From the sequence record MK327941.1: a stretch of 64,000 nucleotides of DNA; one strand, written 5' to 3'. Positions 3,622 to 41,475 of the stretch are shown one piece after another (the stretch's first letter is position 1; each line of letters opens with the position of its first letter). The notes beneath the pieces were generated by a model. The model was not told where the DNA came from and did not search any database. It saw only the letters and a list, made by a program, of their open reading frames with translations. Source of the stretch: Escherichia phage vB_EcoM_G37-3. The position numbers and the translations under genes were made by a program.

Positions 3622-4209
3622 CTAAATATCTAACCAAGACAAGTCAGATCCGCCAAAGATTTTTTCGACGGCGGATCTATTTTCTTGATGATATAAGTTA
3701 AAACATGGTATCCCATGTCTACGGGCAACATAAACAGCAATTCGAGTTCCTCCCGAAACGATTCCATTAACTTCTTTCGCCCAGAATATCACACAATCTA
3801 CAGGGTCATCAAGTGTCTCACCTAAGACTTGAGCGACATTTCTAGAAAACAGATTTTGCATGTATAACGGTATAGAACGAGGATTATCATAAACGTGTTC
3901 TAATTCATCCATCGCCAGATTTTTTTGTTCTAAGGTTTGCCATGCAATCACATCATGACCGTTATGCTTGTGGTCATAAAACTTCCAATTTGGAATGAAA
4001 ATTTTTCTATAATCTGGATCGTAATACTTCATGAAAGCATTGTCCATACCGTAAGCCCCTCCAGAATGCGCTACAACGCGATTTTCTGACAATACCCTCC
4101 CAATGGTACTAGCCATTATCAAAATGTCGCTAGGCGCTTTTCTAGAGCCGATTAAAGCACATCTACGAAGTGGTTTTACTCCAAATAGATCTTGTAACTG
4201 GTCAAACAT
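3622..4209 (-). CDS. SLOG/DprA-like Rossmann-fold protein (hypothetical)
   Basis: 195 aa; ALIGSRKAPSDIL...VVAHSGGAYGMDNAF resembles the DprA/Smf nucleotide-binding core; GGAGG RBS before ATG. Confidence 0.4.
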   Translation of the reverse strand: MFDQLQDLFGVKPLRRCALIGSRKAPSDILIMASTIGRVLSENRVVAHSGGAYGMDNAFMKYYDPDYRKIFIPNWKFYDHKHNGHDVIAWQTLEQKNLAMDELEHVYDNPRSIPLYMQNLFSRNVAQVLGETLDDPVDCVIFWAKEVNGIVSGGTRIAVYVARRHGIPCFNLYHQENRSAVEKIFGGSDLSWLDI

Positions 4210-4324
4210 AATATTTCCTCCATAGAAAGCAATATCATACTACAAGTTAATAACAAATACAAGTATCCGCGTAGCGGAAGCGAGCACAGCGAGCAATAAA
4301 ACACTTCCAGTAATTGATTAATAA

Positions 4325-4540
4325 ATGTTCGAAACAAATTTTTATTATTCTATAAGATAAGTCTTCGTTTTGATCATAATTTAATCATACATGTAAAAAC
4401 TACACAAAAGGATATCGCTTCGCGAACTCCTACGGAGTATAACATTTGTGTTACAATATGTAGTGATTAATAATTAACCAAAGATACATTTTCTATGTTC
4501 TAAAGATCTTTCTTCGTTTTGATCATAATTTAATCAAACA
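4325..4540 (-). repeat. Two copies of a conserved intergenic element (core AAAACGAAGA...ATCTT.TAGAA.ATAGAAAAT)
   Basis: Direct repeats TCTTCGTTTTGATCATAATTTAATCA at about 4362 and 4512; third copy at 57204-57292 on the opposite strand. Confidence 0.6.
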
Positions 4541-4589
4541 GTATTAATATTGTGCACATGTAAACTAAAATTATGTTAATAACAGATAC

Positions 4590-4614
4590 AAAAAAGCCGC
4601 CCCGAAGGACGGCT
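4590..4614 (-). terminator. Rho-independent terminator
   Basis: GC-rich hairpin (GCCGTCCTTCGGGGCGGC on minus strand) followed by T6. Confidence 0.6.
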
Positions 4615-4622
4615 AATGTTAA

Positions 4623-5060
4623 TTATTTGTTGATAACGATCTGATTTCGGCGAATGGTAACATTACTCTTAGAGATGATCAGATCATCCGGCACTACGTT
4701 AGTTTTGTATGGTTGGAAGCGAACAAGCATCTGATTGCGTTTAGACCCTTCCTTAATCTTGATTTCCATCTGAATATTGTTGCCTACGTGAGCAACCGCA
4801 ATTTCACCTTTATTCTCATAGACCCACTTGCTGGTAACGTCTCCAGCAAAAGCCTTAATAACTTGCAATGCTTCGTCGTATGCGGTAGAGCTGTGAACTT
4901 TCAGAAGGCCAGCCGTAGCAAGACGGGAGCAGGTGATCGCCGGAGATTGCCAAACATCAACATTAATTTGCTCAATCAGAGTAACACCGCCCTGGTCAAC
5001 TGCTTTGAATGCTTCAAACATTGTCTTTTTCATTGCTACGTGGTTTTTACGGAATTTCAT
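4623..5060 (-). CDS. Hypothetical protein
   Basis: 145-aa ORF, RBS AGAGGTGA, terminator downstream. Confidence 0.6.
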   Translation of the reverse strand: MKFRKNHVAMKKTMFEAFKAVDQGGVTLIEQINVDVWQSPAITCSRLATAGLLKVHSSTAYDEALQVIKAFAGDVTSKWVYENKGEIAVAHVGNNIQMEIKIKEGSKRNQMLVRFQPYKTNVVPDDLIISKSNVTIRRNQIVINK

Positions 5061-8126: not shown

Positions 8127-9814
8127 ATGCAAGATATTAAATTCACTTTCTGAACTACTCCCATGTTCAAATTGAATGTAGCGATTCAATTTTATTAGAA
8201 ATGCGAGATTATTTTAGTTTTGAAGTCGAGGGAGCGCGGTTTCAAAAAAGATTTAAGTATGGTGGATGGGATGGGCGTATTCGTCTTTTAGATTACAACG
8301 GAAAGCTGCCAATCGGTCTAACTAAAACCGTGGGAATCTTCGCTAAAAATATGGGCTATAGCGTATGGGTAGATCCTCGCTTATTCGAAAAAGAACAAGT
8401 TACAGAAGAAGAAATTACAAAATGGTGTAATAACTTAGAATTATATTCCGGTGCTAACAGGATCACCCCTCATTGGTATCAATCAAAGGCCGTCTTTGAA
8501 GGTATTTCATCATAAACGCCGTATGTTAGTTTTGCCTACGTCCGCTGGTAAATCTGCGATTGCTTGTATGTTGTCTCGTTGGTACTTAGAGAATTACGAA
8601 GGGAAAGTGTTGATCATCGTTCCTACCACGTCGCTAGTGCTGCAAATGCGTGATGACTTTGTTGATTATCGCCAGTTTCCTTATGAAGCAATTCATACTA
8701 TCATGAGCGGTACTAGTAAACACGTAGGTGATCGCCTGATCGTTGTTAGTACGTGGCAATCTGCATGTAAACAACCTAGTGAGTGGTTCCAACAATTCGG
8801 GATGGTTATTGTTGACGAATGTCACAAGGCCACTGCTAAAACCTGCTAAACATCGTTACTGATATGGATCATTGTCAATTTAAGATCGGCATGACTGGTT
8901 CCCCTCGTGACGGGAAAGCTAACATGATGCAGTATGTCGGGCTTTTCGGTGATATTTCTAAGATCGTGAGTATTGACCGCCTGATGGAAGAAGGGCAGGT
9001 GACAAAACTGAAAATTAACTGTCTTTTCCTTCGTTATACCGATGAGGAATAGCGCGGTTAAGGGGCGAGAATATGCGGAAGAGATCAAGTACATTACATC
9101 TAACCCACGACGAAATAAGTTTGCTTGTAATTTGGCGCTAAAACTCGCTAAGAAGGGCGAAAACGTATTCCTGATGTTCCGCAACACTAAGCACTGAAAA
9201 TTAACTGTCTTTTCCTTCGTTATACCGATGAGGAATGTAGCGCGGTTAAGGGGCGAGAATATGCGGAAGAGATCAAGTACATTACATCTAACCCACGACG
9301 AAATAAGTTTGCTTGTAATTTGGCGCTAAAACTCGCTAAGAAGGGCGAAAACGTATTCCTGATGTTCCGCAACACTAAGCACGGAAAACTTATGTATGAT
9401 GCGTTACAGAAGGTACACGACAAGGTTTATTATATTGACGGTGGAGTTAAGACAGAAGAACGTGATGAATTTAAGAAATTAGCGGAAGGGGAAACCGGGA
9501 TCATTTGCGTTGCATCCTATGGTGTGTTCTCTACTGGTGTTTCCATCAAGAATTTGCATCATGTTATTTTCGGTCATCCAGTGAAGGAATCAACTATCGT
9601 TCGTCAGAGTATCGGTCGTGCATTGCGTAAACATGGTTCTAAGGATATTGCAACGGTCTGGGATCTTATAGATCATCTGGCGGTGAAGACAAAGAGCAAT
9701 AATGCTAAGAAACAGTTTAGCCACCTTAATTATGCTCTTAAACATGCGCTTGAAAGAATAAAAATTTACAACACCGATCGATTCGAATATGTCACGAAAA
9801 CAATCGAGATTTAA
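8127..9814 (+). pseudogene. uvsW: uvsW (DNA/RNA helicase), disrupted by frameshifts and a tandem duplication
   Basis: Fragments in alternating frames match T4 UvsW (FSFE..G.RF, GWDGRIRLLDY, LPTSAGKS, DECH, GSPRDGKANMMQYVG, VFSTGVSIKNLHHV, TVWDLID); frame changes near 8140, 8505 and 8840, plus duplication at 9009-9382. Confidence 0.8.
9009..9382 (+). repeat. Tandem direct duplication inside uvsW (186 bp + 188 bp)
   Basis: Copies 9009-9194 and 9195-9382 identical except for a 2-nt GT indel; copy 1 reads GAG GAA TAG (stop), copy 2 reads through; junction at GAAAA microhomology. Confidence 0.9.
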
Positions 9815-21775: not shown

Positions 21776-21809
21776 TTGATACTCCTTAGTAGTTCGTTTC
21801 GGTATGTGT

Positions 21810-21838
21810 ATTATAGGGGATCGATGATCCCCTGTCAA
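21810..21838 (-). promoter_or_regulatory. Early promoter with palindromic spacer (PeSL-type)
   Basis: Minus strand TTGACA-GGGGATCATCGATCCCC-TATAAT, A-tract upstream. Confidence 0.7.
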
Positions 21839-21846
21839 CAACTTTT

Positions 21847-22365
21847 TTAGTTATTTTTTAATTGCTCATCTTGCAATAGGGCAATCACATGCTGGCGATG
21901 TTCTTCCGATTGAGGCACACCGAAAAAGTTTGTTTTGTAGAAATACTCTAATCGGTCTTCTCGTGTGCTCTCTTCCATCATGATCGCGGGTAGTCCGAGA
22001 TTTCGGAAACGTCGCTTTTCTGCTGGCGTAAAATCACTGTAATACAACATAGAATCATCATTACCAGCAATGCTAAACTCATCTTTCATAAAGGAGAATA
22101 TTGCGTTTAAACGCTGTTTACCGTCCACGATTTCGATCTCATAGCGAGAGCCATCATCAATCTTAGCCATTGCGATAGCACCAACCGGAAAATCATTAAT
22201 CAGGTTTTCGATAAACATACGTTTGTTTTCGGTGTCCCATACCAAAGGACGCTGATAATCTGGGTTCATGTTGATATATCCATCTTCTAACCACGCCTCA
22301 TAAACAGAGATGACAAAGTTTTTAGTATTGGTATAGTAACGGCGTTTAGGCGTTAAACGGTTCAT
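21847..22365 (-). CDS. DUF262 / ParB-like nuclease-domain protein
   Basis: DYQRPLVWDTENK...VDGKQRLNAI resembles the DUF262 (GmrSD N-terminal) DGQQR motif; start ATG 22365 with CAGGAGA RBS. Confidence 0.5.
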   Translation of the reverse strand: MNRLTPKRRYYTNTKNFVISVYEAWLEDGYINMNPDYQRPLVWDTENKRMFIENLINDFPVGAIAMAKIDDGSRYEIEIVDGKQRLNAIFSFMKDEFSIAGNDDSMLYYSDFTPAEKRRFRNLGLPAIMMEESTREDRLEYFYKTNFFGVPQSEEHRQHVIALLQDEQLKNN

Positions 22366-22366
22366 G

Positions 22367-22699
22367 TTATAGTCTCCTGAATGGATCATCACGTAAATCA
22401 ATATCTTTTAAGAACTCATCCCATGAATGGCGGATATTGTTCTTAATTCTCCAGATAAGCGCAGGGATTGAACGCTCTCCCATCTGGAAGTATGGATCAT
22501 ATGATCCGTATGCCCAATATGCTACTACAATTCCACAATCAGAGCAATAGTATTCTATTTCACTTGCTGGCGACCAAAGTCCATCAATATGATCGGTGAT
22601 CTTGCTTTCGATGTTATGGCTATGACAATCAGGGCAACGGATGCAATGACCTTGTTTATCGTAATTTGACGTTAGCGAATACTTAAACAATCTCATCAT
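22367..22699 (-). CDS. Zinc-finger protein (hypothetical)
   Basis: CIRCPDCHSH...CSDC, two CxxC pairs. Confidence 0.5.
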   Translation of the reverse strand: MMRLFKYSLTSNYDKQGHCIRCPDCHSHNIESKITDHIDGLWSPASEIEYYCSDCGIVVAYWAYGSYDPYFQMGERSIPALIWRIKNNIRHSWDEFLKDIDLRDDPFRRL

Positions 22700-23412
22700 A
22701 GATCCTTATTGGCTTCAAATACTGCCTTTGCGAATCCTCGCGGGGTAAGTGACCTTATAGTCTTTGTTTTCGTTCCTTTCCCGCCTAGCTTAGAATGCTG
22801 TTTACTGTACCCTTTATTAATCTGCAAAGGTTTCTTTTCTGGCATCATAAAGCCTTGTCCGGTCCATAAGCAAGTCTTTTTCGGGTACATATCACGGGCG
22901 GCAATATACTCAGGAAACGTAGGATGCTTATCATCTTCCGGCAAATAACCGCCATATTCCCACGGATGAAACATATAATCAGGCTTACGCCACATGCTAG
23001 AGATAACGCTTACAGGATTCTCTATCATGTAGGGAACTCCTAGCCATTCACCCAAATAAGCGGTTATTTTAGCTGCCCGTACATCATGAACTTGAATCAA
23101 TGGTCCTTGTTCTCGTTTCTTTCGTTCAAAGTGCGCAGCGCCACTAACAGCTAAATTGGTGCACGGTGGGAATGCAAAGATAATATCCGGTTTCCCCCAT
23201 TCAAGGTCCATTGCTCTTTCCAGCCAGTTCAAATCAATCCATGTGTTTACATAGGTAATGTTTGGATGTTCAAATCTGGTATTATACTTTTTGTATGTGC
23301 CGTGGTCGCCATCATCAGCATTAAAGCAGATCACCTTATGACCTGCTTTAGCCCATTCTAGCCCCATTATCCCCGATCCGTCAAAGTTACAGAATATTAA
23401 TTTTTGTTTCAT
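22696..23412 (-). CDS. C5-cytosine methyltransferase-like protein (catalytic core only)
   Basis: Motif I-like FCNFDGSG, motif IV-like FPPCTNLAVSGA, motif VI-like MIENP; no evident target-recognition domain. Confidence 0.45.
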   Translation of the reverse strand: MKQKLIFCNFDGSGIMGLEWAKAGHKVICFNADDGDHGTYKKYNTRFEHPNITYVNTWIDLNWLERAMDLEWGKPDIIFAFPPCTNLAVSGAAHFERKKREQGPLIQVHDVRAAKITAYLGEWLGVPYMIENPVSVISSMWRKPDYMFHPWEYGGYLPEDDKHPTFPEYIAARDMYPKKTCLWTGQGFMMPEKKPLQINKGYSKQHSKLGGKGTKTKTIRSLTPRGFAKAVFEANKDL

Positions 23413-23654
23413 ATACGCCCCTTTAATCCAACACAGATTTTAGAAGGTTCTTTGCCGTGCCACATTAAGTAAAGTCCGTTAATGCGGCCTTGTTTTGTAT
23501 ATGATTCTTTTCTGATCTTCTTATAGTGTCGTGTTTCCTCAGCCGATTGTTTAGAATACCAATCATAAAGGAAGATGAACAAAGGCCACCCATTAGCGGC
23601 CTTAATGCAGTTATTCAAAAATTCCTTATTGCGTTTAATTAATTTTCTTTTCAC
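23409..23654 (-). CDS. Hypothetical protein
   Basis: 81 aa, overlapping-stop coupling with neighbours. Confidence 0.5.
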   Translation of the reverse strand: MKRKLIKRNKEFLNNCIKAANGWPLFIFLYDWYSKQSAEETRHYKKIRKESYTKQGRINGLYLMWHGKEPSKICVGLKGRI

Positions 23655-23902
23655 GCTGCCCCCATTGGTTTGATAGTAACAGAATCTAAAAGACCTTTGT
23701 TAGCCAGTTCGCGGCAAGTTTTCAGATCCGCAACTTCCCAACCAGCCGCAATCAGGTTATCAATCAGGCTGTTAGCAACTTCTTCGCTCATGAAAGAGCA
23801 CTGTTTGCCGATGGTGTAGCGTACACGCTGTAATTTCAGTTTACGGAAGCCTTTAACGTTCAGGTCTTTAGCGATTTTCTTTGCGGTTTCGATGTTAGCC
23901 AT
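23651..23902 (-). CDS. Hypothetical protein
   Basis: 83 aa, first gene after promoter 23943-23971. Confidence 0.5.
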   Translation of the reverse strand: MANIETAKKIAKDLNVKGFRKLKLQRVRYTIGKQCSFMSEEVANSLIDNLIAAGWEVADLKTCRELANKGLLDSVTIKPMGAA

Positions 23903-23942
23903 TGTTTGATTCTCCTAAGTGGTATCTCGTCTTGATGGTTGT

Positions 23943-23971
23943 ATTGTAGGGGAGTTATCCTCCCCTGTCAA
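23943..23971 (-). promoter_or_regulatory. Early promoter with palindromic spacer (PeSL-type)
   Basis: Minus strand TTGACA-GGGGAGGATAACTCCCC-TACAAT. Confidence 0.65.
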
Positions 23972-23985
23972 CACTTTTTATAAAA

Positions 23986-24153
23986 TTATTTGTTAATTTC
24001 TGGTGCGTTGCTAGGATAGTAACCTTCTTTAACACCCAGATATTTTGCAACCATCCCTACAATCTTCTGTGCTACTACAATGTCAAATTTCAGATAATCT
24101 TCGCCGTGGGTTTCAATGATATATGCTTCACATGCTGCTTTAGTCTCGAACAT
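23986..24153 (-). CDS. Small hypothetical protein (55 aa), paralog of 27246-27413
   Basis: AGGAGA RBS; about 90 percent nucleotide identity with second copy. Confidence 0.5.
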   Translation of the reverse strand: MFETKAACEAYIIETHGEDYLKFDIVVAQKIVGMVAKYLGVKEGYYPSNAPEINK

Positions 24154-24186
24154 TTTGATTCTCCTATTTCGTTTCGTTATGTGTGT

Positions 24187-24215
24187 ATTATAGGGGATCT
24201 CCCGATCCCCGTCAA
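24187..24215 (-). promoter_or_regulatory. Early promoter with palindromic spacer (PeSL-type)
   Basis: Minus strand TTGACG-GGGATCGGGAGATCCCC-TATAAT. Confidence 0.6.
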
Positions 24216-24229
24216 CAACTTTTTTAAAA

Positions 24230-24511
24230 TTATTCGTGATTAGTTTCGATGTTGTGCATTTTGCACCAGTTCAGCCAATCACCCAGATCCTGATAGTTAA
24301 TGCTTTTATCTGCTGCCATCGTTTTTGTCTTGATACCCATATGTGCGTTATGAGTAAGCATTTTTACAGTGAACTCAATTTTATCACCTTTAGCTTTAAC
24401 ATCAACCAGTTTGGTCCACTGGCTACCAGCGCCGCGAATGTTCATACCAACGATGTTTCCGATGTATGCTTCTTTGTTTTTCAGGATTTCGGTTGCTTTG
24501 ATGAATTTCAT
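24230..24511 (-). CDS. Hypothetical protein
   Basis: 93 aa, GGAGA RBS. Confidence 0.5.
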   Translation of the reverse strand: MKFIKATEILKNKEAYIGNIVGMNIRGAGSQWTKLVDVKAKGDKIEFTVKMLTHNAHMGIKTKTMAADKSINYQDLGDWLNWCKMHNIETNHE

Positions 24512-24581
24512 TTTTGATTCTCCAGTTCGTTTCGGTATGTGTGTATTATGCTATGTTCTTACTTTGGTGTCAACAACTTTT

Positions 24582-24851
24582 TTAGATATTTTCAGAAATA
24601 AATTTTAAAACTTGACGTAAATGTTTCTCATCTTTGATAGTCGCCGGAAGTTCTTCTTTTACTTCCTGTGCAAGATAGATATTTCCGTTCCAAGTGAAAG
24701 ATCCGTCTTCGTTTACGCGATAGCTGAACATCCACTCGCAATCATTTTCGATTTCATATACACACAGAAGGGTGTAATCGTTAAAGCTATTGATTTCAAG
24801 GTCGAAGCCGTGACGTTTTGCAAAGTTGGTAGTGGTTTTAGTCAGAGCCAT
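24582..24851 (-). CDS. Hypothetical protein
   Basis: 89 aa, AGGAGA RBS. Confidence 0.5.
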   Translation of the reverse strand: MALTKTTTNFAKRHGFDLEINSFNDYTLLCVYEIENDCEWMFSYRVNEDGSFTWNGNIYLAQEVKEELPATIKDEKHLRQVLKFISENI

Positions 24852-24924
24852 TGTTTGATTCTCCTAAATGGTATCTCGTTTCGATGTGTGTATTATGCTA
24901 TAGGCCGGATCTGGTGTCAATGCC

Positions 24925-24954
24925 TTTTTTAAAAAAGCCGACACTAAGGTCGGC
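24925..24954. terminator. Hairpin terminator
   Basis: GCCGACACTAAGGTCGGC flanked by T6 and A6. Confidence 0.55.
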
Positions 24955-24962
24955 TAATAAAA

Positions 24963-25271
24963 TCATTTAGACAAGTAATCATTCTGTGCAATACGGTCGG
25001 CGTATGCTGGTGTTATGTCAATCGCCAGCACTTTAACGCGTGCTTTCTTGCGACCTGGGTTTTCTCGTAACCAGTGCTCATGACCGTGAACATTTTTATA
25101 CTTTGATGCTTCTTCAAATGTACGGATCGGACCTGGGTAATCAGCGTAAAGGATCTCTAGGTCTTCGGTGATGTAAAAATATACATCGTAATTACTGTTC
25201 TCTAGTTTAAGCAGAGAGTTGCGAAATTGTGGTAAATTCTCGCGGGTAAATTCAACTACAAGATTTTTCAT
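24963..25271 (-). CDS. HxHW-family small protein, member 1
   Basis: HGHEHWLRENPGRKKARVKVLAIDITP. Confidence 0.55.
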   Translation of the reverse strand: MKNLVVEFTRENLPQFRNSLLKLENSNYDVYFYITEDLEILYADYPGPIRTFEEASKYKNVHGHEHWLRENPGRKKARVKVLAIDITPAYADRIAQNDYLSK

Positions 25272-25321
25272 AGTGATATCCTCATTCAGATAGATTAAAA
25301 GGGGGCTTAACGCCCCGTATA

Positions 25322-25609
25322 TTAAAACAGTCCTTCCTGTACACCGTAGTAGAGTTCATCGCTGATAATTTCATTAATGCGACGGTGTGCATATTCCTGA
25401 TTTGCGAAGTTATCAGCAAGTTCTACTTTAGTTTCGCCGTCATGAGTCCATTTAGTGATAACTTTACCATCTGCAAATTTGAAGTTGAACTCTTTAGCTA
25501 CTGCATCGCGTACCAGACGTGCGAACTTGTTGTTACGGATTGCATTATCGGTTTCGTGTGCAGCGTGAGCGAATTTGTTAACTTTCAGAGTGATAGTAAT
25601 GTATGCCAT
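25322..25609 (-). CDS. Hypothetical protein, paralog of 28851-29162
   Basis: Shared AKEFN.K core with second copy. Confidence 0.5.
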   Translation of the reverse strand: MAYITITLKVNKFAHAAHETDNAIRNNKFARLVRDAVAKEFNFKFADGKVITKWTHDGETKVELADNFANQEYAHRRINEIISDELYYGVQEGLF

Positions 25610-25655
25610 AATTTGATTCTCCTAGTTAGAAAGTGTATCTCGTTTCGATGGGGAT

Positions 25656-25684
25656 ATTATGCTATATCCCCGATCCGGTGTCAA
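25656..25684 (-). promoter_or_regulatory. Early promoter with inverted repeat flanking the -10
   Basis: Minus strand TTGACA-N17-CATAAT with GGGGATAT / ATATCCCC arms. Confidence 0.55.
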
Positions 25685-25690
25685 CACTTT

Positions 25691-25969
25691 TTATAAAATA
25701 ATTTTTTGATATTTTTCTATGATGTTCGTGTAAGTCACATCAACCGCTAGCACCGTTGCTTCGAATCCACCGTTTAGCCAATGGCTATGATCATGATCGT
25801 GAAAGAAACCTAGACCAGTACGAAGACCTTCTTTATATTCTGCGCGTACATTCAGTTTGTCGTCGATAAACAGATAAAACCATGAATTTTTACTAGGATT
25901 GATGATACAACCTTTCAGATTAGGGAGAATATCACGACTAAGAATAAACTTATCACCTACTTTGAGCAT
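25691..25969 (-). CDS. HxHW-family small protein, member 2
   Basis: HDHDHSHWLNGGFEATVLAVDVT; start at internal ATG. Confidence 0.5.
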   Translation of the reverse strand: MLKVGDKFILSRDILPNLKGCIINPSKNSWFYLFIDDKLNVRAEYKEGLRTGLGFFHDHDHSHWLNGGFEATVLAVDVTYTNIIEKYQKIIL

Positions 25970-25983
25970 AATATTTTCCTCAC

Positions 25984-26292
25984 TTATAAAGTTTGACCGT
26001 TGTTTTTCGCGTAATGCTGAATGCGTGCTTGATCTGCTTCCGCTGGTGATAGATTCCATGCGATCACTACAACTTCTGACGCATCATGATCATTATCACT
26101 TACCCAATGATTATGATTCATACAATTGTTTGCTATCGCGTGAGCAAATGATCTCATTACCGGAGACGTATAATCATAGTAACGGATTTTCAGATTTTCA
26201 TCAACGTACAAGTAGATCGTATACGGCTTATATTCAGTAACCAGTAACAGACAGTTACGCAATTCTGGGAAAATCTTTTTAGTTAATTTCAT
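25984..26292 (-). CDS. HxHW-family small protein, member 3
   Basis: NHNHWVSDNDHDASEVVVIAWN; start at ATG 26292. Confidence 0.5.
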   Translation of the reverse strand: MKLTKKIFPELRNCLLLVTEYKPYTIYLYVDENLKIRYYDYTSPVMRSFAHAIANNCMNHNHWVSDNDHDASEVVVIAWNLSPAEADQARIQHYAKNNGQTL

Positions 26293-26293
26293 T

Positions 26294-26512
26294 TTATAAT
26301 CCTCGGTCGCGGCTATAGTACACGGTACGCCATACAATTTCATGTTTCGTGTCGCTCCAGCACACGATCTCATTTACTCTTAAATCTTTGTTATCAACAA
26401 AAGATGAACATTGTGACGCTTCTTTCATCATTTTATCTGCTGTTTTCTCATCAAATACAGCACAGATTTCTTTATACACTCGATAATCTTTGAATTGACT
26501 CTGGATACTCAT
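26294..26512 (-). CDS. Hypothetical protein, paralog of 26515-26730
   Basis: SQFKDYRVYKEICAVFDEKTADKMMKEASQCSSF versus SKFKEYKAYQQILRVYEPEFAEKMMEDASKCPSF. Confidence 0.45.
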   Translation of the reverse strand: MSIQSQFKDYRVYKEICAVFDEKTADKMMKEASQCSSFVDNKDLRVNEIVCWSDTKHEIVWRTVYYSRDRGL

Positions 26513-26514
26513 AA

Positions 26515-26730
26515 TTAACACCAATCAAGAGTTTTTGAGAAAACCTCTATCCATTGTTGAGTATATGCGGTTTCTTTCCATGATACAATACCAGTAGAAT
26601 AATGGTTTTTGTTTCCAGAAAAGGACGGGCATTTTGATGCATCTTCCATCATCTTTTCGGCGAACTCTGGTTCGTATACCCGCAAAATCTGTTGATATGC
26701 TTTGTATTCTTTAAATTTGCTCATAATCAT
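26515..26730 (-). CDS. Hypothetical protein, paralog of 26294-26512
   Basis: Tandem paralog pair. Confidence 0.45.
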   Translation of the reverse strand: MIMSKFKEYKAYQQILRVYEPEFAEKMMEDASKCPSFSGNKNHYSTGIVSWKETAYTQQWIEVFSKTLDWC

Positions 26731-26989
26731 TCACTACCTTATCAGCTTCTTTTGTTGTTTTTACATCAACTGCGATAACCCGTAAAGGTTCGTCATGGTT
26801 CCACCAATGATCGTGAATATCGGCTTGTGATTTATCACCAAAGGAATCACGAATATCATTTTTACATTTATAGCTAATGTGACCGTCATAGTCAACATAA
26901 AGGTAATTATCGAAAATCGGCGTTTTTAAGATCATACCGAAAAATCTTTCTTTGTGTGTCTTATCCAGTGTTGCAGTAATTCGCATCAT
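26711..26989 (-). CDS. HxHW-family small protein, member 4
   Basis: IHDHWWNHDEPLRVIAVDVKT. Confidence 0.5.
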   Translation of the reverse strand: MMRITATLDKTHKERFFGMILKTPIFDNYLYVDYDGHISYKCKNDIRDSFGDKSQADIHDHWWNHDEPLRVIAVDVKTTKEADKVVNDYEQI

Positions 26990-27001
26990 AATATATTCCT
27001 C

Positions 27002-27181
27002 TTAGAAAGGGATGGTCATTTCTTGAGCTTGTACATTCTCGTTAGGATTAAACTTCATCCAACCGATATTGTCTACCAGCATATGTACATTTTTATCATA
27101 TCCTACGTGAGTAGTCAACACTAAATGTGCTTTACCTTCAACGATGATTTCCATGTACTTCTGAACTTCGATAGCTTTCAT
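27002..27181 (-). CDS. Small hypothetical protein (59 aa)
   Basis: ATG with GGAGA RBS. Confidence 0.4.
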   Translation of the reverse strand: MKAIEVQKYMEIIVEGKAHLVLTTHVGYDKNVHMLVDNIGWMKFNPNENVQAQEMTIPF

Positions 27182-27245
27182 TTTGATTCTCCGTTTGTTG
27201 TCTTGATGGGAGTATCTTACTACTCCCTTTAATCATTGTCAACGA

Positions 27246-27413
27246 TTATTTGTTAATTTCCGGTGCGTTGCTTGGATAGTAGCCTTCTTTAACACCCAGA
27301 TATTTTGCAACCATTCCGGTGATCTTCTGTGCTACTACGATATCGAATTTCAGGTAGTCTTCACCGTGGTTTGCTACAATGTATGCTTCGCATTCTGCTT
27401 TAGTCTGGAACAT
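27246..27413 (-). CDS. Small hypothetical protein (55 aa), paralog of 23986-24153
   Basis: Near-identical second copy. Confidence 0.5.
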   Translation of the reverse strand: MFQTKAECEAYIVANHGEDYLKFDIVVAQKITGMVAKYLGVKEGYYPSNAPEINK

Positions 27414-27447
27414 TTTTGATTCTCCTATATCTCGTTGGTATGTGTGT

Positions 27448-27476
27448 AGTATAGGGGATCACCGATCCCCTGTCAA
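27448..27476 (-). promoter_or_regulatory. Early promoter with palindromic spacer (PeSL-type)
   Basis: Minus strand TTGACA-GGGGATCGGTGATCCCC-TATACT. Confidence 0.65.
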
Positions 27477-27484
27477 CAACTTTT

Positions 27485-27775
27485 TTATTCTTTATACGCA
27501 TATTTCATAAATTTGTCTGCTACTTCATCGGCATGTTCCGATTCTACGCCGGATTCGAGAACAATAGCAAGGTCGGTTTCGTCGTGACCTTCGTACCAGT
27601 GATTATGTGTGTCGTTTGAATCAATATAGAATTTATCACCTTCGTAAGTTCGAGCAAATACATCTAAATTCTCGTCGATGTAAAAGATCCAATCTTCATA
27701 AAGAATAACCGTATTAGCAAGGTTCTTATTACCTTCAACGAAAGGTTCGGCTACAAACAAATCAGTACGTTCCAT
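27485..27775 (-). CDS. HxHW-family small protein, member 5
   Basis: THNHWYEGHDETDLAIVLE. Confidence 0.5.
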   Translation of the reverse strand: MERTDLFVAEPFVEGNKNLANTVILYEDWIFYIDENLDVFARTYEGDKFYIDSNDTHNHWYEGHDETDLAIVLESGVESEHADEVADKFMKYAYKE

Positions 27776-27790
27776 AGTATTTTCCTCAAA

Positions 27791-27952
27791 TTAAGAAAAA
27801 GCGTTGAAAACACCCGCCAACACAACTACGTTAGCGATAAGGCTTAAAAAGCATTTCTTGATACTTTCAGTGCAGATACCAATACTGGCAGGAATTACAC
27901 CGATCACGATAGCATAAAGAATAACTGCGATTTCTTGAAATACACCGTTCAT
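27791..27952 (-). CDS. Small membrane protein (53 aa)
   Basis: Hydrophobic ORF MNGVFQEIAVILYAIVIGVIPASIGI... Confidence 0.35.
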   Translation of the reverse strand: MNGVFQEIAVILYAIVIGVIPASIGICTESIKKCFLSLIANVVVLAGVFNAFS

Positions 27953-28008
27953 AATATTATCCTCAATTTGTGGGAGAGTATTACCCTCCCGATTATTGTT
28001 ATACTACA

Positions 28009-28311
28009 TTACGCAAAATGGCGTGTCAATACTTCTTTTGCTGTTCCGCTAAGATTCTCGATCTCTCCTGGCATAACATCAACCGCCAGAACTTCTACAA
28101 CATCCTCTGATCCTAACCAGTGAGTATGACCTTTGTAGAACTTGATATCCCATTTATCGCTATCGCTAGCCCACCACACATCACCGTCTATAAAGTTGAT
28201 GTAAAGCACACTACGACACATTGAATTAGTTACTTTCAATACTGCGCCTTTCATCTCTTCCACGGTATGGTCTTCCATTTTGAAGACCTCGCCTACCTTA
28301 ACTTTTGCCAT
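28009..28311 (-). CDS. HxHW-family small protein, member 6
   Basis: GHTHWLGSEDVVEVLAVDVMP; start at ATG 28311. Confidence 0.5.
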   Translation of the reverse strand: MAKVKVGEVFKMEDHTVEEMKGAVLKVTNSMCRSVLYINFIDGDVWWASDSDKWDIKFYKGHTHWLGSEDVVEVLAVDVMPGEIENLSGTAKEVLTRHFA

Positions 28312-28312
28312 G

Positions 28313-28579
28313 TTACATGCTCCGAATATGTTTAGATGCATCTTCCAGTTCGTCGATAGTGACACTGTGAGCCAGTAAGTGTACTGGTTGTGGTTCTTCA
28401 CCTTCCATAGTATTGATCAGATGACCGTTTCCTGGGTGGAATGTATCGTTGCCGTTCCAAATAGCATACACATCATCTTCTGTTACGTAGATAATAAGTC
28501 CAATCGGTGATTCTGGTAATTGAAAAATTTTACCCACTGCATCTTTGCGATTGTTTACGATATCTTTTACTGTCTTCAT
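28313..28579 (-). CDS. HxHW-family-related small protein, member 7 (divergent)
   Basis: FHPGNGHLINTMEGEEPQPVHLLAHSVTIDE. Confidence 0.4.
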   Translation of the reverse strand: MKTVKDIVNNRKDAVGKIFQLPESPIGLIIYVTEDDVYAIWNGNDTFHPGNGHLINTMEGEEPQPVHLLAHSVTIDELEDASKHIRSM

Positions 28580-28598
28580 TTAGTTACCTCTCGTTAAA

Positions 28599-28778
28599 TT
28601 ACATCACAATCACGCCAGCCGTTGAAAGTTGATGTTTCAACTGAGCATTTTCTGCTACTGTCAAATCAATGATTTCTTGTGACGCTGCAATCATATAGCC
28701 ATTGGTGATATTGTTTTGCATCAGTTCAATGGTTTCTTCGTTGTAGCGGATTTTAGCGATGATTTCGTTGAAGTTCAT
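28599..28778 (-). CDS. Small hypothetical protein (59 aa)
   Basis: ATG with GGAGA RBS. Confidence 0.4.
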   Translation of the reverse strand: MNFNEIIAKIRYNEETIELMQNNITNGYMIAASQEIIDLTVAENAQLKHQLSTAGVIVM

Positions 28779-28812
28779 GTTTGATTCTCCTAGTTCGTTT
28801 CGGTATGTGTGT

Positions 28813-28842
28813 ATTATAGGGGAGTTTAACCTCCCTTGTCAA
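28813..28842 (-). promoter_or_regulatory. Early promoter with palindromic spacer (PeSL-type)
   Basis: Minus strand TTGACA-AGGGAGGTTAAACTCCCC-TATAAT. Confidence 0.6.
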
Positions 28843-28850
28843 CAACTTTT

Positions 28851-29162
28851 TTAAAGTTTTTCCATGATAACGGTCATAATTACATCTTCTGCGCGGGCGG
28901 TCAGATTATCAGCGTCAGCATGTGGGCGGTTGGTTGTTACAGAGATAACACCGTTGCGCACTGGTTTGATATTGATATCAAGATGATCCGCGAAACGTTC
29001 GCCAGTTACAGAATGAATTTTGGTGTTAAATTCTTTTGCCAGTGCCTTGCGAACTTCACGAATCAGGATAGCGTTTTTCAGTTGGTTCTCCGCGCTCATG
29101 GTCTTCTGGGTGTTCATGGTTCCGTCGAAGTCAATCATTGGCAGCGTTACGATGTATTTCAT
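28851..29162 (-). CDS. Hypothetical protein, paralog of 25322-25609
   Basis: Shared AKEFN.K core. Confidence 0.5.
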   Translation of the reverse strand: MKYIVTLPMIDFDGTMNTQKTMSAENQLKNAILIREVRKALAKEFNTKIHSVTGERFADHLDINIKPVRNGVISVTTNRPHADADNLTARAEDVIMTVIMEKL

Positions 29163-29207
29163 TTTTGATTCTCCGTTTAAGAAAGTGTGTTTCGTTTTGA
29201 TGTGTGT

Positions 29208-29236
29208 AGTATAGGGGATACGTGATCCCCTGTCAA
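29208..29236 (-). promoter_or_regulatory. Early promoter with palindromic spacer (PeSL-type)
   Basis: Minus strand TTGACA-GGGGATCACGTATCCCC-TATACT. Confidence 0.65.
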
Positions 29237-29249
29237 CAACTTTTTTGAA

Positions 29250-29594
29250 TTATTTTTTCATGAGCTTAATGGCTTCTTCCATAGCCAGCACATTTCGATA
29301 GTTAGGGTATCGTGTTAGATCGTCATACATTCGCTTAAGGGTGGAAACTTCCTCAAACTCTGGGTTTTCTAGATACAGTTGAACAAATTGTTTCTCTACC
29401 ATCTCGGCTTTTAGCTTGTCTGCTTGTTCCTGTTCATATGATTTCGTTGGACCCAACACCAACAAAATGATAAAGGTGATCAACGGGCTAATGATCAATG
29501 ATAGGATAACATAACCGATAACGCTACGGTTTAAACGGCTTGCGTACATGCCTACCAGGAAAACAAAAAGGATATAGATAAACAGAAAGAACAT
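29250..29594 (-). CDS. Membrane protein (hypothetical)
   Basis: Hydrophobic N-terminal half. Confidence 0.5.
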   Translation of the reverse strand: MFFLFIYILFVFLVGMYASRLNRSVIGYVILSLIISPLITFIILLVLGPTKSYEQEQADKLKAEMVEKQFVQLYLENPEFEEVSTLKRMYDDLTRYPNYRNVLAMEEAIKLMKK

Positions 29595-37593: not shown

Positions 37594-37992
37594 TTAACTT
37601 TCCAGAATATCGCGAGCTTCGTTACGCTCCTTGATGATTTTCAGGACAAATTCCAGTTTTTCTTTGTTTAGTGTTCCGTTTTCCATTGCTTCTTTGACGG
37701 TAAACACTCCGCCACCTTGCCCGTATACAGTGACAGTGATTTCACCTAACATCGTGGTATGAAAACCGCCAATTTTCGGTGATTCGAAAGAAACAATTAC
37801 CTCGCGGACAGTATTACCGTCGTTGATTTCTGAGAGGGTAATGTCGTTTTTGTAGGCGGTTGCTTTAACCATACGGATCAGCATAGTCTGATCTGGGGAG
37901 ATGGTCATTTTGTCCATTGCATGTTGCAATGCAGCGTAACCGAAAACTTTAACGAAGTCCAGAACGTCTTTGCGAGTTTGAAATTTAATCAT
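37594..37992 (-). CDS. Hypothetical protein
   Basis: 132 aa downstream of early promoter. Confidence 0.55.
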   Translation of the reverse strand: MIKFQTRKDVLDFVKVFGYAALQHAMDKMTISPDQTMLIRMVKATAYKNDITLSEINDGNTVREVIVSFESPKIGGFHTTMLGEITVTVYGQGGGVFTVKEAMENGTLNKEKLEFVLKIIKERNEARDILES

Positions 37993-38015
37993 CTTGATAC
38001 TCCTTAGTTGTTTTG

Positions 38016-38044
38016 GTATGGGAGTATCTTACTACTCCCGTGAT
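38016..38044 (-). promoter_or_regulatory. Early promoter, second PeSL class (inverted repeat spanning the -10)
   Basis: Minus strand TTGACA-N17-TAAGAT within GGGAGTAGTAAGATACTCCC palindrome. Confidence 0.6.
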
Positions 38045-38063
38045 ATGCTGTCAACTGCTTTTT

Positions 38064-38212
38064 TATGCAACCGCAAACATCAACATTTGAACATTCTTGG
38101 CTGTCTGGCTTTCAAAGTTCTGACATTCTTTGATAATGTCCTCTACTTTCTCGCCGGAGATCTCCGCGTAAGTTTCGATTGCCATTTTAAGTACCGCGTC
38201 AAAGTTGTTCAT
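38064..38212 (-). CDS. Small hypothetical protein (49 aa)
   Basis: ATG start; ORF MNNFDAVLKMAIETYAEISGEKVEDIIKECQNFESQTAKNVQMLMFAVA. Confidence 0.3.
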
Positions 38213-38279
38213 TTGATTCTCCTTAAAGTGTATTTCGTTTCGATGGGGGTATATTACTACCCCCGTTTCATGCTGTCAA

Positions 38280-38498: not shown

Positions 38499-38567
38499 TT
38501 TGATTCTCCTTTGTTTCGTTTCGATGGGAGTATCTTACTACCCCCGTTATTCAGTGTCAACTACTTT

Positions 38568-41407: not shown

Positions 41408-41438
41408 AATAAAATCCTCACTTGTTTTTGATGGTTGT

Positions 41439-41467: not shown

Positions 41468-41475
41468 CAGTTATT

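Follow-up and report, generated by a model that had tools for sequence, protein, structure and literature searches.

Promoter-early stem-loops (PeSLs) have been described in RB49, phi1 and other T4-type phages (PMC2839356, PMC4122927). The T4 replication origins oriF and oriG are units of about 100 bp that combine a promoter with an A+T-rich unwinding element whose sequence is not fixed, and active T4 origins lie near strand-switch points (PMC3016281). Single-strand initiation signals include the G4 complementary-strand origin and RSF1010 ssiA and ssiB (PMC13037366) and the phiX174 primosome assembly site (PMC5778457). The G4 and RSF1010 signals sit where replication starts on single-stranded DNA, and those of RSF1010 occupy opposite strands beside iterons and an A+T-rich stretch (PMC13037366). 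C-G-closed GNA triloops constitute the "mini-hairpin DNA" motif of the G4 complementary-strand origin and RSF1010 ssiA (PMC13037366).

We describe an intergenic element in a 64,000-nucleotide stretch of Escherichia phage vB_EcoM_G37-3 (MK327941.1; the window), which is part of a Krischvirus (RB49-like, T4-type) genome. The element is a composite cassette in which a 73-nt A+T-rich quasi-palindrome is joined by one or more short G+C hairpins, each with a 3-nt loop. It is not mentioned in the two PeSL papers (PMC2839356, PMC4122927) or the T4 origin review (PMC3016281), and a term search of the 2010 PeSL paper (PMC2839356) returned none of its loci. Our literature search found no Krischvirus transcriptome paper.

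Like PeSLs, which occur in the same phages, the cassette is a repeated intergenic stem-loop unit that runs in the direction of the gene downstream. Its boundaries also act as recombination junctions, and accessory genes adjoin it (ORF164c/165c, ORF130w). PeSLs themselves are abundant in the window at 21.7-29.3 and 38-38.6 kb. They carry a near-consensus TTGACA-N17-TATAAT promoter, whereas the element reaches 6-8 of 12 consensus positions at best. The PeSL stem has the form Gn-loop-Cn, but the stems of the element are either A+T-rich (73 nt) or short, of mixed G+C sequence and closed by 3-nt loops. A Shine-Dalgarno sequence and start codon follow the PeSL stem, whereas a late promoter intervenes before the gene at two copies of the element (C and D). 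Finally, PeSLs occupy hyperplastic early regions and the element lies among late genes.

With oriF and oriG the cassette shares a unit length of about 100 bp, several loci per genome, strand specificity relative to transcription and a tendency toward strand-switch regions; copies A, B and D lie within about 1-2 kb of a strand switch and copy C lies 5 kb from the nearest. The easily melted, low-stability A+T-rich segment of those origins is likewise present in the modules. The T4 origins need a MotA middle promoter, whereas the Mot box TGCTT is absent from the aligned copies of the element that were read, and the RB49 annotation contains no motA or asiA gene. T4 origins have no common motif, but the copies of the element are homologous to each other. 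A term search of the origin review (PMC3016281) found no hairpins described for T4 origins.

Like single-strand initiation signals, the element is a hairpin cluster of about 70-140 nt with very short C-G-closed G+C stems and loops of the GAA/GNA type (GCGAAAGC, CCGAAGG). It also has the G4-type arrangement, in which one strand carries several hairpins and at least one of these is short, stable and built of G+C pairs. Those signals, however, serve ssDNA phages or plasmids with dedicated primases and share no sequence homology with the element. T7-type RNase III signals, too, are imperfect hairpins that recur between genes, run with transcription and comprise about two helical turns interrupted by an internal loop. 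The geometry of the element, in which a 3x3 loop separates 7 bp from up to 16 bp more, is compatible with theirs. In T7 such sites are embedded in long polycistronic transcripts, whereas the element stands behind terminators or ahead of promoters, is far more A+T-rich and is accompanied by GNA mini-hairpins. Correia/NEMIS and REP/BIME repeats are also short intergenic inverted-repeat hairpin modules that are homologous across loci. The element differs from them in having four fixed copies, in lacking target duplications in Krischvirus and a known associated transposase, and in being confined to phages.

A 73-nt hairpin module at fixed loci

The repeat unit is a 73-nt imperfect hairpin of 19-25% G+C, with three copies (A, B and C) in the window. 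The initial annotation had proposed three related copies upstream of, and oriented with, the flanking genes. Sequence reading and repeat finding (repeats I1, 81 nt, 72%, and D13) recovered them at those places, each on the strand of its downstream gene. The copies and their neighbors are as follows.

3622-4209, minus strand: downstream gene, homologue of RB49 ORF164c, 195 aa; weak, sub-threshold DprA-like match
4266-4278, minus strand: mini-hairpin of copy B, TCCGC-TAC-GCGGA (GTA on the opposite strand), then TACTTGTATT; flagged as terminator-like
4315-4387, minus strand: copy B, 19% G+C; covariance-model match of 71.8 bits, repeat D13, fold
4415-4425, minus strand: mini-hairpin 2 of copy A, TCGC-GAA-GCGA, the CGCGAAGCGATAT block of the initial annotation; includes GCGAAGC
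4426-4438, minus strand: mini-hairpin 1 of copy A, ACTCC-GTA-GGAGT on the element strand; C-G closing pair, GNA loop
4464-4536, minus strand: copy A, 22% G+C; covariance-model match of 73.4 bits (E 3.7e-11), single-sequence fold, pair counts
4595-4614, minus strand: intrinsic terminator of the upstream gene, AGCCGTCC-TTCG-GGGCGGCT then a T-run; 8 pairs, 6 of them G-C, tail TTTTTGTATC
4623-5060, minus strand: upstream gene, ORF165c homologue
57153-57175, plus strand: intrinsic terminator of gene 35, 14 nt upstream of copy C
57190-57262, plus strand: copy C, 25% G+C; covariance-model match of 85.8 bits, fold, pair counts
57263-57275, plus strand: mini-hairpin 1 of copy C, GTGCC-TAC-GGCAC (GTA on the opposite strand); directly abuts the 73-nt module
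57277-57287, plus strand: mini-hairpin 2 of copy C, TCGC-GAA-GCGA, then TATTTTGTT; flagged as terminator-like
57304-57311, plus strand: late promoter TATAAATA of gene 36, 17 nt downstream of the cassette (gene 36 ATG at 57345)

Copy B lies 149 nt downstream of copy A, and the terminator at 4595-4614 marks the upstream limit of the A/B locus. The count of three holds for the window but not for the genome, in which a fourth copy (D) lies upstream of gene 3 (RB49 62810-62881, minus strand). A covariance-model search found no copy beyond these four. Module length ranges from 71 to 76 nt across copies and lineages in single-sequence folds.

A core of roughly 35 bp had been taken as the repeated unit, but the actual unit is the 73-nt hairpin. 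There are exactly three instances of the core CAAAACGAAGANNNATCTT in the window. With up to two mismatches it has 4 matches versus 0.14 expected, and none of 100 shuffles reached 4, a count well removed from the chance level that would have spoken against the element. The palindrome and block ascribed to every copy are present in the window in copies A and C only (AAAGATCTTT and CGCGAAGCGATAT); copy B has AAGACTTATCTT instead, together with the different hairpin TCCGC-TAC-GCGGA. The emphasized palindrome AAAGATCTTT is also missing from the prophage versions described below.

The element was correctly described as unlike the TATAAATA late and TTGACA early promoters, neither of which was found in it by promoter scans. 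A sigma-70 scan found nothing reaching the tool's threshold on the element strand within or before copies A, B and C. In a relaxed scan of 32 distinct upstream flanks the best hexamer pairs matched 6-8 of 12 consensus positions, and weak -10-like hexamers (TATAGT, TAGATT, CATAAT and others) stand 0-3 nt before the module in most lineages. No TATAAATA late promoter precedes ORF164c. Since TATAAATA lies downstream of copy C, the element is not part of the main late gene 36 mRNA. The cassette is upstream of a late promoter at copies C and D and behind a terminator at copies A and C, which places it outside the main mRNAs.

The modules fall at the 0.04-1.2 percentile of duplex stability (nearest-neighbor, 73-nt segments of the whole window). 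Low duplex stability is common in the intergenic DNA of this phage.

Conservation of base-pairing

In copy A, the outer stem (UGAUUAA/UUAAUCA) is followed by a 3x3 internal loop and an inner stem with ATCTT in the apical loop. The outer stem amounts to inverted ends of 6-7 bp, and in copy C its A-U and U-A pairs are replaced by G.U and U.G. We asked how far pairing is retained across the aligned copies. Paired cells made up 79.3% of the total versus 29-47% with slid partners, and the inner stem is backed by compensatory changes, with both-side changes at 10 stem pairs versus 0-3 in the slid controls. None of 500 shuffles matched either value. The stem arms vary from lineage to lineage but remain complementary; what is conserved is pairing rather than sequence.

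The gene-sense strand has 32 G.T cells versus 13 A.C cells, an excess that fits folding of the displaced sense strand. De novo prediction with RNAalifold did not recover the long hairpin and returned a weak local hairpin instead (-0.68 kcal/mol); a local hairpin or palindrome occupies alignment columns 1-17. The arms can pair in alternative ways (s1:s2 with s3:s4, or s1:s4 with s2:s3). Single-sequence z-scores ranged from -0.6 to -3.5, and one prophage variant, L066 (P3), scored -6.4.

Mini-hairpins with C(GNA)G loops

Downstream of each module stand short G+C hairpins whose 3-nt loops are almost always of the C(GNA)G form; the CGCGAAGCGA block, for example, forms the hairpin TCGC-GAA-GCGA. 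All five C(GNA)G triloop hairpins in the 64-kb window lie within the three copies (chance expectation 1.5 +/- 1.3), and 6 of the 11 in RB49 belong to the element. When Krischvirus, E. coli, Salmonella and a distant prophage relative were combined, 19 of 28 distinct triloop hairpins had GNA on either strand against an expectation of 1/8. Thirteen of these are GNA on the sense strand and six on the antisense strand, and such use of both strands suits DNA better than a single transcript.

A terminator scan flagged the copy B hairpin and mini-hairpin 2 of copy C on the element strand, and mini-hairpin 1 of copy C on the opposite strand. In copies A and D and in the E. coli prophage copies, the last hairpin has little or no T-run behind it. 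Other terminator-like hairpins of the window with 3-nt loops have TTA, ATT or TTT, not GNA.

Distribution in Krischvirus and temperate phages

All 58 Krischvirus genomes of the phage collection matched each of the three window regions, so the predicted conservation in related phages was found. A single match spanned at least 80% of the query in 58, 57 and 54 of the 58 records, respectively. Apart from records that start or end within a locus, we saw no presence/absence polymorphism among the 58. Four copies at identical loci were read directly in the window, RB49, ECD7 and one metagenome genome. Identity to RB49 was higher in the elements than in their surroundings (99.5% versus 98.1%; 97.1% versus 94.1%). 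The flanks of copies A-D show no target-site duplication. A MITE-like element would combine such duplications with terminal inverted repeats and a presence that varies from genome to genome. In phages phiS and AV108, a homing-endonuclease gene is inserted directly after copy D.

Outside Krischvirus, an exact-pattern scan of IMG/VR found the element in one prophage lineage only, and a looser scan added only chance matches in coding DNA. The same two groups were recovered from metagenomes, along with one chance match, and a one-genome-per-species scan gave 5 matches, which is chance level. The 73-nt module occurs once per chromosomal prophage in about 1% of complete E. coli genomes, at about 78% identity, and a Salmonella relative also carries it; PLSDB plasmids had no match to the prophage region. 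BLAST homology to the prophage covers query positions 5-79, which correspond exactly to 57189-57263 and end at the stem base.

The prophage module points toward rightward genes and adjoins an ORF-free region of about 1.3 kb that is full of short palindromic iterons and has a single strong promoter, at its far end. Prophage variants share one 73-nt module but differ in their downstream hairpin modules, with the junction directly after AATCA. The L077 prophage lacks the whole unit of about 190 nt, between direct repeats GAAAG(G)TGATTGT. These 12-13-bp repeats belong to a local repeat family. The module boundaries coincide with recombination junctions in the prophage lineage. We considered an inverted interior for the Salmonella hairpin, but alignment in both orientations did not support it.

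The only proteins common to the prophage and RB49 are a tail-fiber segment and an LprI-like protein, so a trans-acting partner was rejected; these shared sequences indicate that exchange does occur. On the sequence evidence, the cassette itself has passed horizontally between Krischvirus and a lineage of temperate E. coli/Salmonella phages. Its four copies per RB49-like genome and its presence in an unrelated prophage mark it as a real, horizontally shared structural signal. Searches of the proteins beside the prophage copy (Pfam, PHROGs, NCBIfam, PDB sequences and 5.8 billion proteins) identified only a Rha/antirepressor and a small terminase subunit, and no recognizable replication domains. 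A 371-aa neighbor has 3 relatives in all, and its AlphaFold model (pLDDT 48.6) was unusable. No DNA-binding protein near the element is common to both phage groups.

Candidate functions of the cassette

We favor, with a probability of roughly 35%, a model in which the cassette is an origin-like signal made of folded single-stranded DNA that serves in unwinding or priming. The 73-bp module, which is among the most easily melted stretches of the genome and resembles a DNA-unwinding element, would be opened by transcription in the gene direction (through an R-loop), by supercoiling or in a recombination intermediate. The gene-sense strand would then fold into the long hairpin and the very stable mini-hairpins, which are expected to resist SSB. 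The folded strand could keep the region open and offer an entry or priming site for a primosome, giving a signal of the origin type or the single-strand-initiation type. We infer that the cassette is active as DNA, not RNA, and that replication initiation or priming is the process served. The conserved fold, the GNA mini-hairpins, the low duplex stability, the position outside the main mRNAs and the iterons beside the prophage copy are consistent with this model. It seems unlikely that the cassette defines a new replication-initiation signal of dsDNA phages, in which an exchangeable module of an unwinding hairpin and DNA mini-hairpins would mark the origins of MotA-less Krischvirus and temperate coliphages through folding of the displaced strand.

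Several observations weigh against a DNA signal. In the G4 origin, the primase start 5'-CTG-3' lies just 3' of the terminal hairpin. No CTG directly follows the last hairpin in the six flanks of the element, where the next bases are TAT (A), TAC (B), TAT (C), CAA (D), and TAT and TAC in two E. coli prophages. Krischvirus also has a complete T4-type replisome, helicase loader and primase included, and thus no obvious need for a priming signal of the host type. The missing Mot box, the poor promoter matches ahead of the module, the lack of recognizable replication domains in the prophage neighbors, the 5 kb between copy C and a strand switch and the frequency of low duplex stability in intergenic DNA likewise count against this model. 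An RNA would equally be expected to show co-orientation with genes and the G.U bias.

It is possible, if doubtful, that the cassette acts instead as a structured RNA transcribed in the gene direction. It could be a cis-acting processing or stability signal, the hairpin of about two helical turns with its internal loop recalling T7-type RNase III sites and the G+C hairpins protecting ends, or a small RNA, about 100-135 nt long, terminating at the last hairpin. The compensatory changes and the G.U pairs on the gene-sense strand fit an RNA, as does the orientation of all three Krischvirus loci with the downstream gene and of the prophage copy toward the rightward genes. The -10-like hexamers 0-3 nt ahead could start a transcript at the first bases of the module, the last hairpin and T-run are terminator-like in B and C, and the alternative pairings resemble an RNA switch. 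However, no promoter reached the tool's threshold before any copy, and the strong terminator before A and C and the late promoter after C and D would leave the abundant mRNAs without the module. The T-run is not conserved and is missing from the prophage copies, one third of the GNA triloops are GNA on the antisense strand only, and we know of no special stability of GNA triloops in RNA. The RNAalifold consensus energy is near nil and the z-scores are modest except in L066 (P3). Rfam had no match in the window at the gathering threshold; permissive scans of 4150-4700 (A/B) and the prophage region gave sub-threshold, chance-level matches, none on the 73-nt module of the window. A tRNA/tmRNA scan also found nothing. 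We consider it improbable that the module is a selfish or neutral palindrome, a recombination linker spread by recombination and gene conversion whose arms are kept complementary by template-switch correction, serving at most, as has been suggested for PeSLs, as a patch of homology for the shuffling of modules. Homology between the phage families stops exactly at the stem base, the prophage variants join the same module to different hairpins, L077 lacks the unit, a homing endonuclease has inserted after copy D, and the genes common to prophage and RB49 attest to exchange. Copies C and D are 94.5% identical over 110 nt though their loci are 87 kb apart. Yet the copies are fixed in position across Krischvirus, without target-site duplications, and slightly more conserved than their surroundings. 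Copies A and B, about 78% identical, are old, but neither has lost the fold or the 73-nt length, and homology-driven spread leaves the association with sequence-unrelated C(GNA)G mini-hairpins unexplained.

Least probable, and in our view quite improbable, is a protein-binding control region, either an operator pair or a factor-dependent promoter. The module ends are 17-bp palindromes (TGrTTA-N5-TrAyCA) that lie 56 bp apart with a -10-like TAGAAT between them, and each fits a degenerate Fis pattern, of which 64 kb of this composition should by our estimate contain about 12 chance matches. Hardly any variation is seen in the outermost half-sites, TGATTA and TAATCA. In most copies a hexamer equal or similar to TAGAAT follows TnAyCA by 17-18 nt, and the local palindrome of columns 1-17 would suit an operator. 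The inner half-sites, however, differ by lineage but stay mutually complementary, which points to base-pairing rather than a fixed protein site. The -35-like hexamer is poor, the -10-like hexamer is missing in variants P5 and L083, promoter scans found nothing inside the module, and the two phage groups share no DNA-binding protein near the element. The initial annotation, whose interpretation is partly supported overall, had suggested a regulator-binding site, a small RNA or a recombination site. The first is the least supported of these, given that base-pairing is conserved rather than sequence; the other two are possible. The hairpin structure, the C(GNA)G mini-hairpins, the fourth copy and the temperate-phage homologue go beyond what it described.

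Several other candidates were rejected. For a sigma-54 promoter, the GG-to-GC spacing in the element is off by one and the motif is not conserved. Reading the sequences revealed no IHF consensus, DnaA box or P1 pac-like TGATCA clusters. There is no short conserved ORF; the ATG is missing in copies C and D. A Dam/GATC role is contradicted by the lack of GATC in the central palindrome of copy B and in most prophage versions. The folded strand of an integron attC site has RYYYAAC ... GTTRRRY at its base, a pattern that the module ends (TGrTTAA ... TTArTCA on the element strand) fit on neither strand.

Implications

If the cassette marks a start of replication or priming, its copies would be the first candidate origins for the RB49 group, and initiation in phages without annotated motA or asiA would become testable at three defined loci. 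An origin-type signal would then also be swappable between a virulent T4-type phage and a temperate one. If the cassette acts as RNA, it would be a covariation-supported structured phage RNA motif outside Rfam, with a sequence set for a new family. Under either reading, the A+T-rich hairpin with its exclusively associated C(GNA)G mini-hairpins provides a compact, searchable signature. Krischvirus phages are components of phage therapy cocktails, and their conserved non-coding elements are worth knowing for that reason.

A hairpin cassette between transcription units of Krischvirus

The initial annotation described a conserved intergenic core of about 35 bp present three times in the window, and this repeat was recovered independently. 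A repeat finder paired 4457-4537 with 57189-57269 (81 nt, 72%) and, within the first locus, 4348-4377 with 4497-4526. The core CAAAACGAAGANNNATCTT has three exact occurrences in the window; allowing up to two mismatches gave 4 matches, compared with 0.14 expected from shuffles. The palindrome AAAGATCTTT and the trailing block CGCGAAGCGATAT had been ascribed to every copy. Both are found in copies A and C, and neither is present in copy B. Each copy is a 73-nt A+T-rich module, which together with the G+C mini-hairpins downstream of it we call the cassette.

Features of the two loci in the window
4209, minus strand: start of ORF164c
4315-4387, minus strand: module of copy B
4464-4536, minus strand: module of copy A
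4595-4614, minus strand: strong terminator after ORF165c (terminator scan)
4623, minus strand: end of ORF165c
about 57142, plus strand: end of gene 35
57153-57175, plus strand: terminator after gene 35 (terminator scan)
57190-57262, plus strand: module of copy C
57304-57311, plus strand: gene 36 late promoter TATAAATA (sequence reading)
57345, plus strand: start of gene 36

On the RB49 annotation, the A/B site is the 413-bp gap from ORF165c to ORF164c, both minus-strand and just past gene 24, and the copy C site is the gap separating tail-fibre genes 35 and 36. Both intergenic stretches match 58 phage records at 95-100% identity, all of them Krischvirus (RB49, phi1, JSE, GEC-3S and others). 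Conservation in related phages was borne out for all three regions in 58 of 58 records, the apparent gaps being records that start or end inside the locus. A whole-genome search of RB49 located a fourth copy (D) at 62.8 kb on the minus strand, immediately upstream of gene 3, with 94.5% identity to copy C over 110 nt. A covariance model built from the copies had exactly three hits in the window and four in RB49, scoring 66-87 bits on the gene-sense strand versus 17-34 bits for the reverse-strand echo, and no others in 164 kb.

The Krischvirus cassettes lie between transcription units. Intrinsic terminators precede copies A and C, and the late promoters of genes 36 and 3 are downstream of copies C and D, respectively, so the main late mRNAs begin 3' of the cassette. 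The divergent gene ORF130w is only 55 nt upstream of the copy D module. Few duplex segments of the window are less stable than the modules (0.04-1.2 percentile).

The flanking genes offered further observations. Phages phiS (L068 1124-1716) and AV108 (L069 1107-1640) have an insertion directly after copy D, following CAATTG and ahead of the late promoter of gene 3. It is a homing-endonuclease gene, encoding 177 aa, that has a TTGACA-N17-TAGATT promoter of its own. JSE, phi1 and ECD7 carry another endonuclease gene on the gene 2 side. From these genes, the gap between genes 2 and 3 appears to be a hot spot for insertions. The ORF164c homologue (3622-4209, minus strand), directly 3' of the tandem cassettes, has a weak, sub-threshold match to the DprA/DNA_processg_A Rossmann region (residues 15-60, 22.2 bits versus a cut-off of 29.6), which could be relevant or coincidental.

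The module is shared with temperate phages

When viral contigs were scanned with an exact pattern, about 25 of them, 17-45 kb long and from isolate genomes, contained the module. They belong to a prophage that 56-58 of 5426 complete E. coli genomes carry in the chromosome. The prophage region had no match in the plasmid collection, and its non-coding part, used as query, had none in the phage collection beyond the short Krischvirus modules. When copy C was compared with E. coli genomes by BLAST, most matches aligned query positions 5-79 at 77-80% identity, which is the 73-nt module and nothing past its ends. Other E. coli strains carry more divergent versions, and a Salmonella relative has an 81-nt version; no further lineage came from scanning metagenomes or one genome per species. 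The prophage (L041 from E. coli TO6, and L031) and RB49 (151.7-152.7 kb and 157.9-158.7 kb) also share amino-acid sequence in two places, a gp37-like segment of the tail fibre (49% identity over 254 aa) and an LprI-domain protein (RB49 ORF260c; 59% identity over 272 aa). These shared genes document exchange between virulent T4-type and temperate phages independently of the module.

In the prophage, the unit sits at the left edge of a 1.3-1.4-kb ORF-free region, flanked by a leftward operon ending in a Rha/antirepressor gene and by rightward genes. The sole strong promoter of this region, TTGACA-17-TATAAT with a palindromic operator, is at its far right end. Elsewhere the region is packed with iterons, short palindromes that read TTGTACA or CTAATACCGGGG in E. 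coli and ACTAGT in a distant relative.

Palindromic repeat arrays
L011, 5590-6330: prophage record
L111, 5980-6640: Salmonella record
L113, 2250-2680: prophage record

The E. coli arrays hold AAAGTGAT four or five times, TTGTACA(T/C) at least 12 times and CTAATACCGGGG about eight times, and that of the distant relative holds 20 or more copies of ACTAGT/ACTAGAAA. They resemble an origin, a centromere or a repressor array, in a temperate phage lineage that is uncharacterised. At both loci inspected (L041 and L111), the prophage lies within or beside ycdX, near ghrA, and carries a lambda-type gpA terminase and portal. The E. coli prophage capsid protein is 668 aa long, and the small terminase gene is about 7 kb from the large one. 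In E. coli prophages otherwise more than 95% identical, the bases between a conserved CTCCTTCAT and the module vary in length and sequence (AGATTT, GATT, AGTTT, AATT, ATATT, AGTGAA; for example, L007 around 3661-3670). A -10-like hexamer, TAnnnT or CATAAT, is nearly always retained at this junction. TTCAGT lies 17 nt upstream, the spacer contains a GGGC-AAA-GCCC hairpin, and the arrangement resembles a weak promoter of the PeSL (promoter-early stem-loop) kind.

Predicted fold of the module: one long hairpin

The module is 71-76 nt long in all versions (81 nt in Salmonella), with a G+C content of 19-33%. Folded singly, most versions give the same long imperfect hairpin; among 18 versions, C_win and D_RB49 (copies C and D) have another minimum-energy fold. 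In this hairpin, UGAUUA(A) pairs with (U)UAAUCA to form the outer stem. An internal loop measuring roughly 3x3 nt or more separates it from an inner stem of 6-13 bp, and the apical region of about 21-30 nt has an invariant ATCTT.

A MAFFT alignment of 16 distinct versions, representing about seven lineages, was almost gapless and placed the hairpin in a single register (column i with column 74-i). Paired cells made up 79.3% in this structure versus 29-47% with partners slid by 1-3 columns, a comparison biased in favour of a structure picked after viewing single-sequence folds. Ten pairs had changed on both sides, versus 0-3 in the slid controls, and 0 of 500 column shuffles matched the observed pairing values. 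The inner stem reads ACAUCAAAAGAG/CUCUUUUGAUGU in one E. coli variant, CAAACGUA/UACGUUUG in another and CCAAAACGAA/UUUGUUUCGG in copies C and D. Double changes were never seen in the outer stem, where C and D have G.U and U.G replacing the A-U and U-A of other copies.

RNAalifold alone returned a weak local hairpin (columns 1-4 with 14-17; total -0.68 kcal/mol), itself showing an AU/GC exchange, and not the long hairpin. Because four segments of the module are complementary to one another, Krischvirus copies could instead form two local hairpins. The long hairpin is the only fold compatible with all lineages.

Mini-hairpins with GNA loops follow each module

One or two short G+C hairpins with 3-nt loops and unrelated sequences lie 3' of each module.

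Mini-hairpins, element strand
Copy A: ACTCC-GTA-GGAGT; TCGC-GAA-GCGA
Copy B: TCCGC-TAC-GCGGA
Copy C: GTGCC-TAC-GGCAC; TCGC-GAA-GCGA
Copy D: GTGCC-TAC-GGCAC; GTCGC-AAA-GCGAC
E. coli prophages, first set: GCAACC-GAA-GGTTGC; ATCCC-GAA-GGGAT
E. coli prophages, other set: GACGCTC-CCT-GAGCGTC; TGC-GAA-GCA
Salmonella: GGATGC-GTA-GCATCC; TCCGC-GAA-GCGGA

We scanned both strands for perfect stems that are closed by a C-G pair and carry a 3-nt GNA loop. All five such C(GNA)G hairpins in the 64-kb window fall in copies A, B and C (block shuffles, 1.5 +/- 1.3), as do 6 of the 11 in RB49 in its four copies. Prophage variants with the same 73-nt module differ in their mini-hairpin modules, and the prophage cluster extends for about 330 nt with three further C(GNA)G hairpins. 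At the corresponding position, the distant relative, whose neighbouring gene shows 25% protein identity, lacks the A+T-rich hairpin but carries five GNA mini-hairpins. Across these regions, 19 of 28 distinct triloop hairpins have GNA loops (13 on the element strand, 6 on the opposite strand), compared with 1 in 8 expected. Other terminator-like 3-nt-loop hairpins of the window have TTA, ATT or TTT loops. A d(GNA) loop closed by C-G is the "mini-hairpin DNA" motif, which is extraordinarily stable as DNA and has been reported in the G4 complementary-strand origin primer site, RSF1010 ssiA and phage N4 hairpin promoters (PMC13037366).

Other repeats in the window

A 70-95-nt repeat occurs in many copies (21776-29258, 37986-38570, 41418-41487, scattered to 47536; six repeat families), with TTGACA, a G-run/C-run stem-loop, TATAAT and SD in order on the minus strand. 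They are the PeSL early-promoter cassettes already published for RB49/phi1 and have no relation to the element studied here. The uvsW region (8201-9814) is split into ORFs of 104, 132 and 164 aa instead of a single ORF, contains a 188-bp tandem duplication (9007-9388; 2.0 copies, 98% matches) and is only 95.1% identical to RB49, with 17 gap openings; it could be a pseudogene or reflect a sequence or assembly problem. Within gene 34, for the proximal tail fibre, a 43-nt repeat occurs five times at 108-372-nt spacing (53554-54316, plus strand) and presumably encodes a repeated structural motif.

Interpretation and relation to known signals

These results firmly support the conclusions that the element is a conserved, horizontally shared cassette and that the selected property is one strand folding into a long A+T-rich hairpin plus G+C mini-hairpins. 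We lean towards DNA as the active form because of the GNA signature, its occurrence on both strands, the location of the cassette outside the main mRNAs and the iteron-rich, promoter-poor neighbourhood in prophages. In our preferred model (probability about 0.35), the cassette is a candidate folded-DNA signal for unwinding and priming. The module would act as an unwinding element, opened, for example, through an R-loop from transcription in the gene direction. The displaced sense strand would then fold into hairpins that hold the region open and may provide a primosome entry or priming site. Such folding would explain both gene co-orientation and the tolerance of G.T on the sense strand.

The initial annotation had proposed a regulator-binding site, a small RNA or a recombination site. 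A structured RNA, serving as a cis-acting processing or stability signal or as a small RNA, is a possible but somewhat unlikely reading. The gene-sense strand has 32 G.U cells versus 13 A.C cells (G.U on the opposite strand). Template switching can give quasi-palindromes complementary changes in a single step, so the covariation demonstrates a hairpin-forming sequence and is not by itself proof of selection on RNA; our literature search found no Krischvirus transcriptome study. We consider it unlikely that the cassette is a selfish palindromic module or serves as a recombination linker. A point in favour of this reading is prophage L077, in which the entire unit of about 190 nt is missing between direct repeats GAAAG(G)TGATTGT. 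It is very unlikely that the cassette is an operator pair or factor-dependent promoter. Weak -10-like hexamers lie 0-3 nt ahead of the module in most lineages, -35 hexamers are poor, and a promoter scan in front of every copy found none at threshold.

The unwinding and priming model has precedents. T4 oriF and oriG consist of a promoter and an A+T-rich unwinding element without fixed sequence, of about 100 bp, and active T4 origins are near strand-switch points (PMC3016281). The cassette likewise has an A+T-rich unwinding element but lacks a MotA promoter, and strand switches occur within 1-2 kb of copies A/B and D. It is also like the single-strand initiation signals of plasmids and ssDNA phages; a CTG primase start after the last hairpin is absent in the flanks of copies A-D and two E. 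coli prophage versions. Assignment of the cassette as a PeSL, late promoter or member of any Rfam family was rejected, and it is probably not a plain terminator. Term searches found it unmentioned in two PeSL papers (PMC2839356, PMC4122927) and the T4 origin review. We rate the cassette as belonging with known kinds of element, namely hairpin cassettes between phage genes and signals for unwinding or single-strand initiation. Its distribution is narrow and its function putative; what is unexpected is its structure, its sharing across phage families and its DNA mini-hairpin signature.
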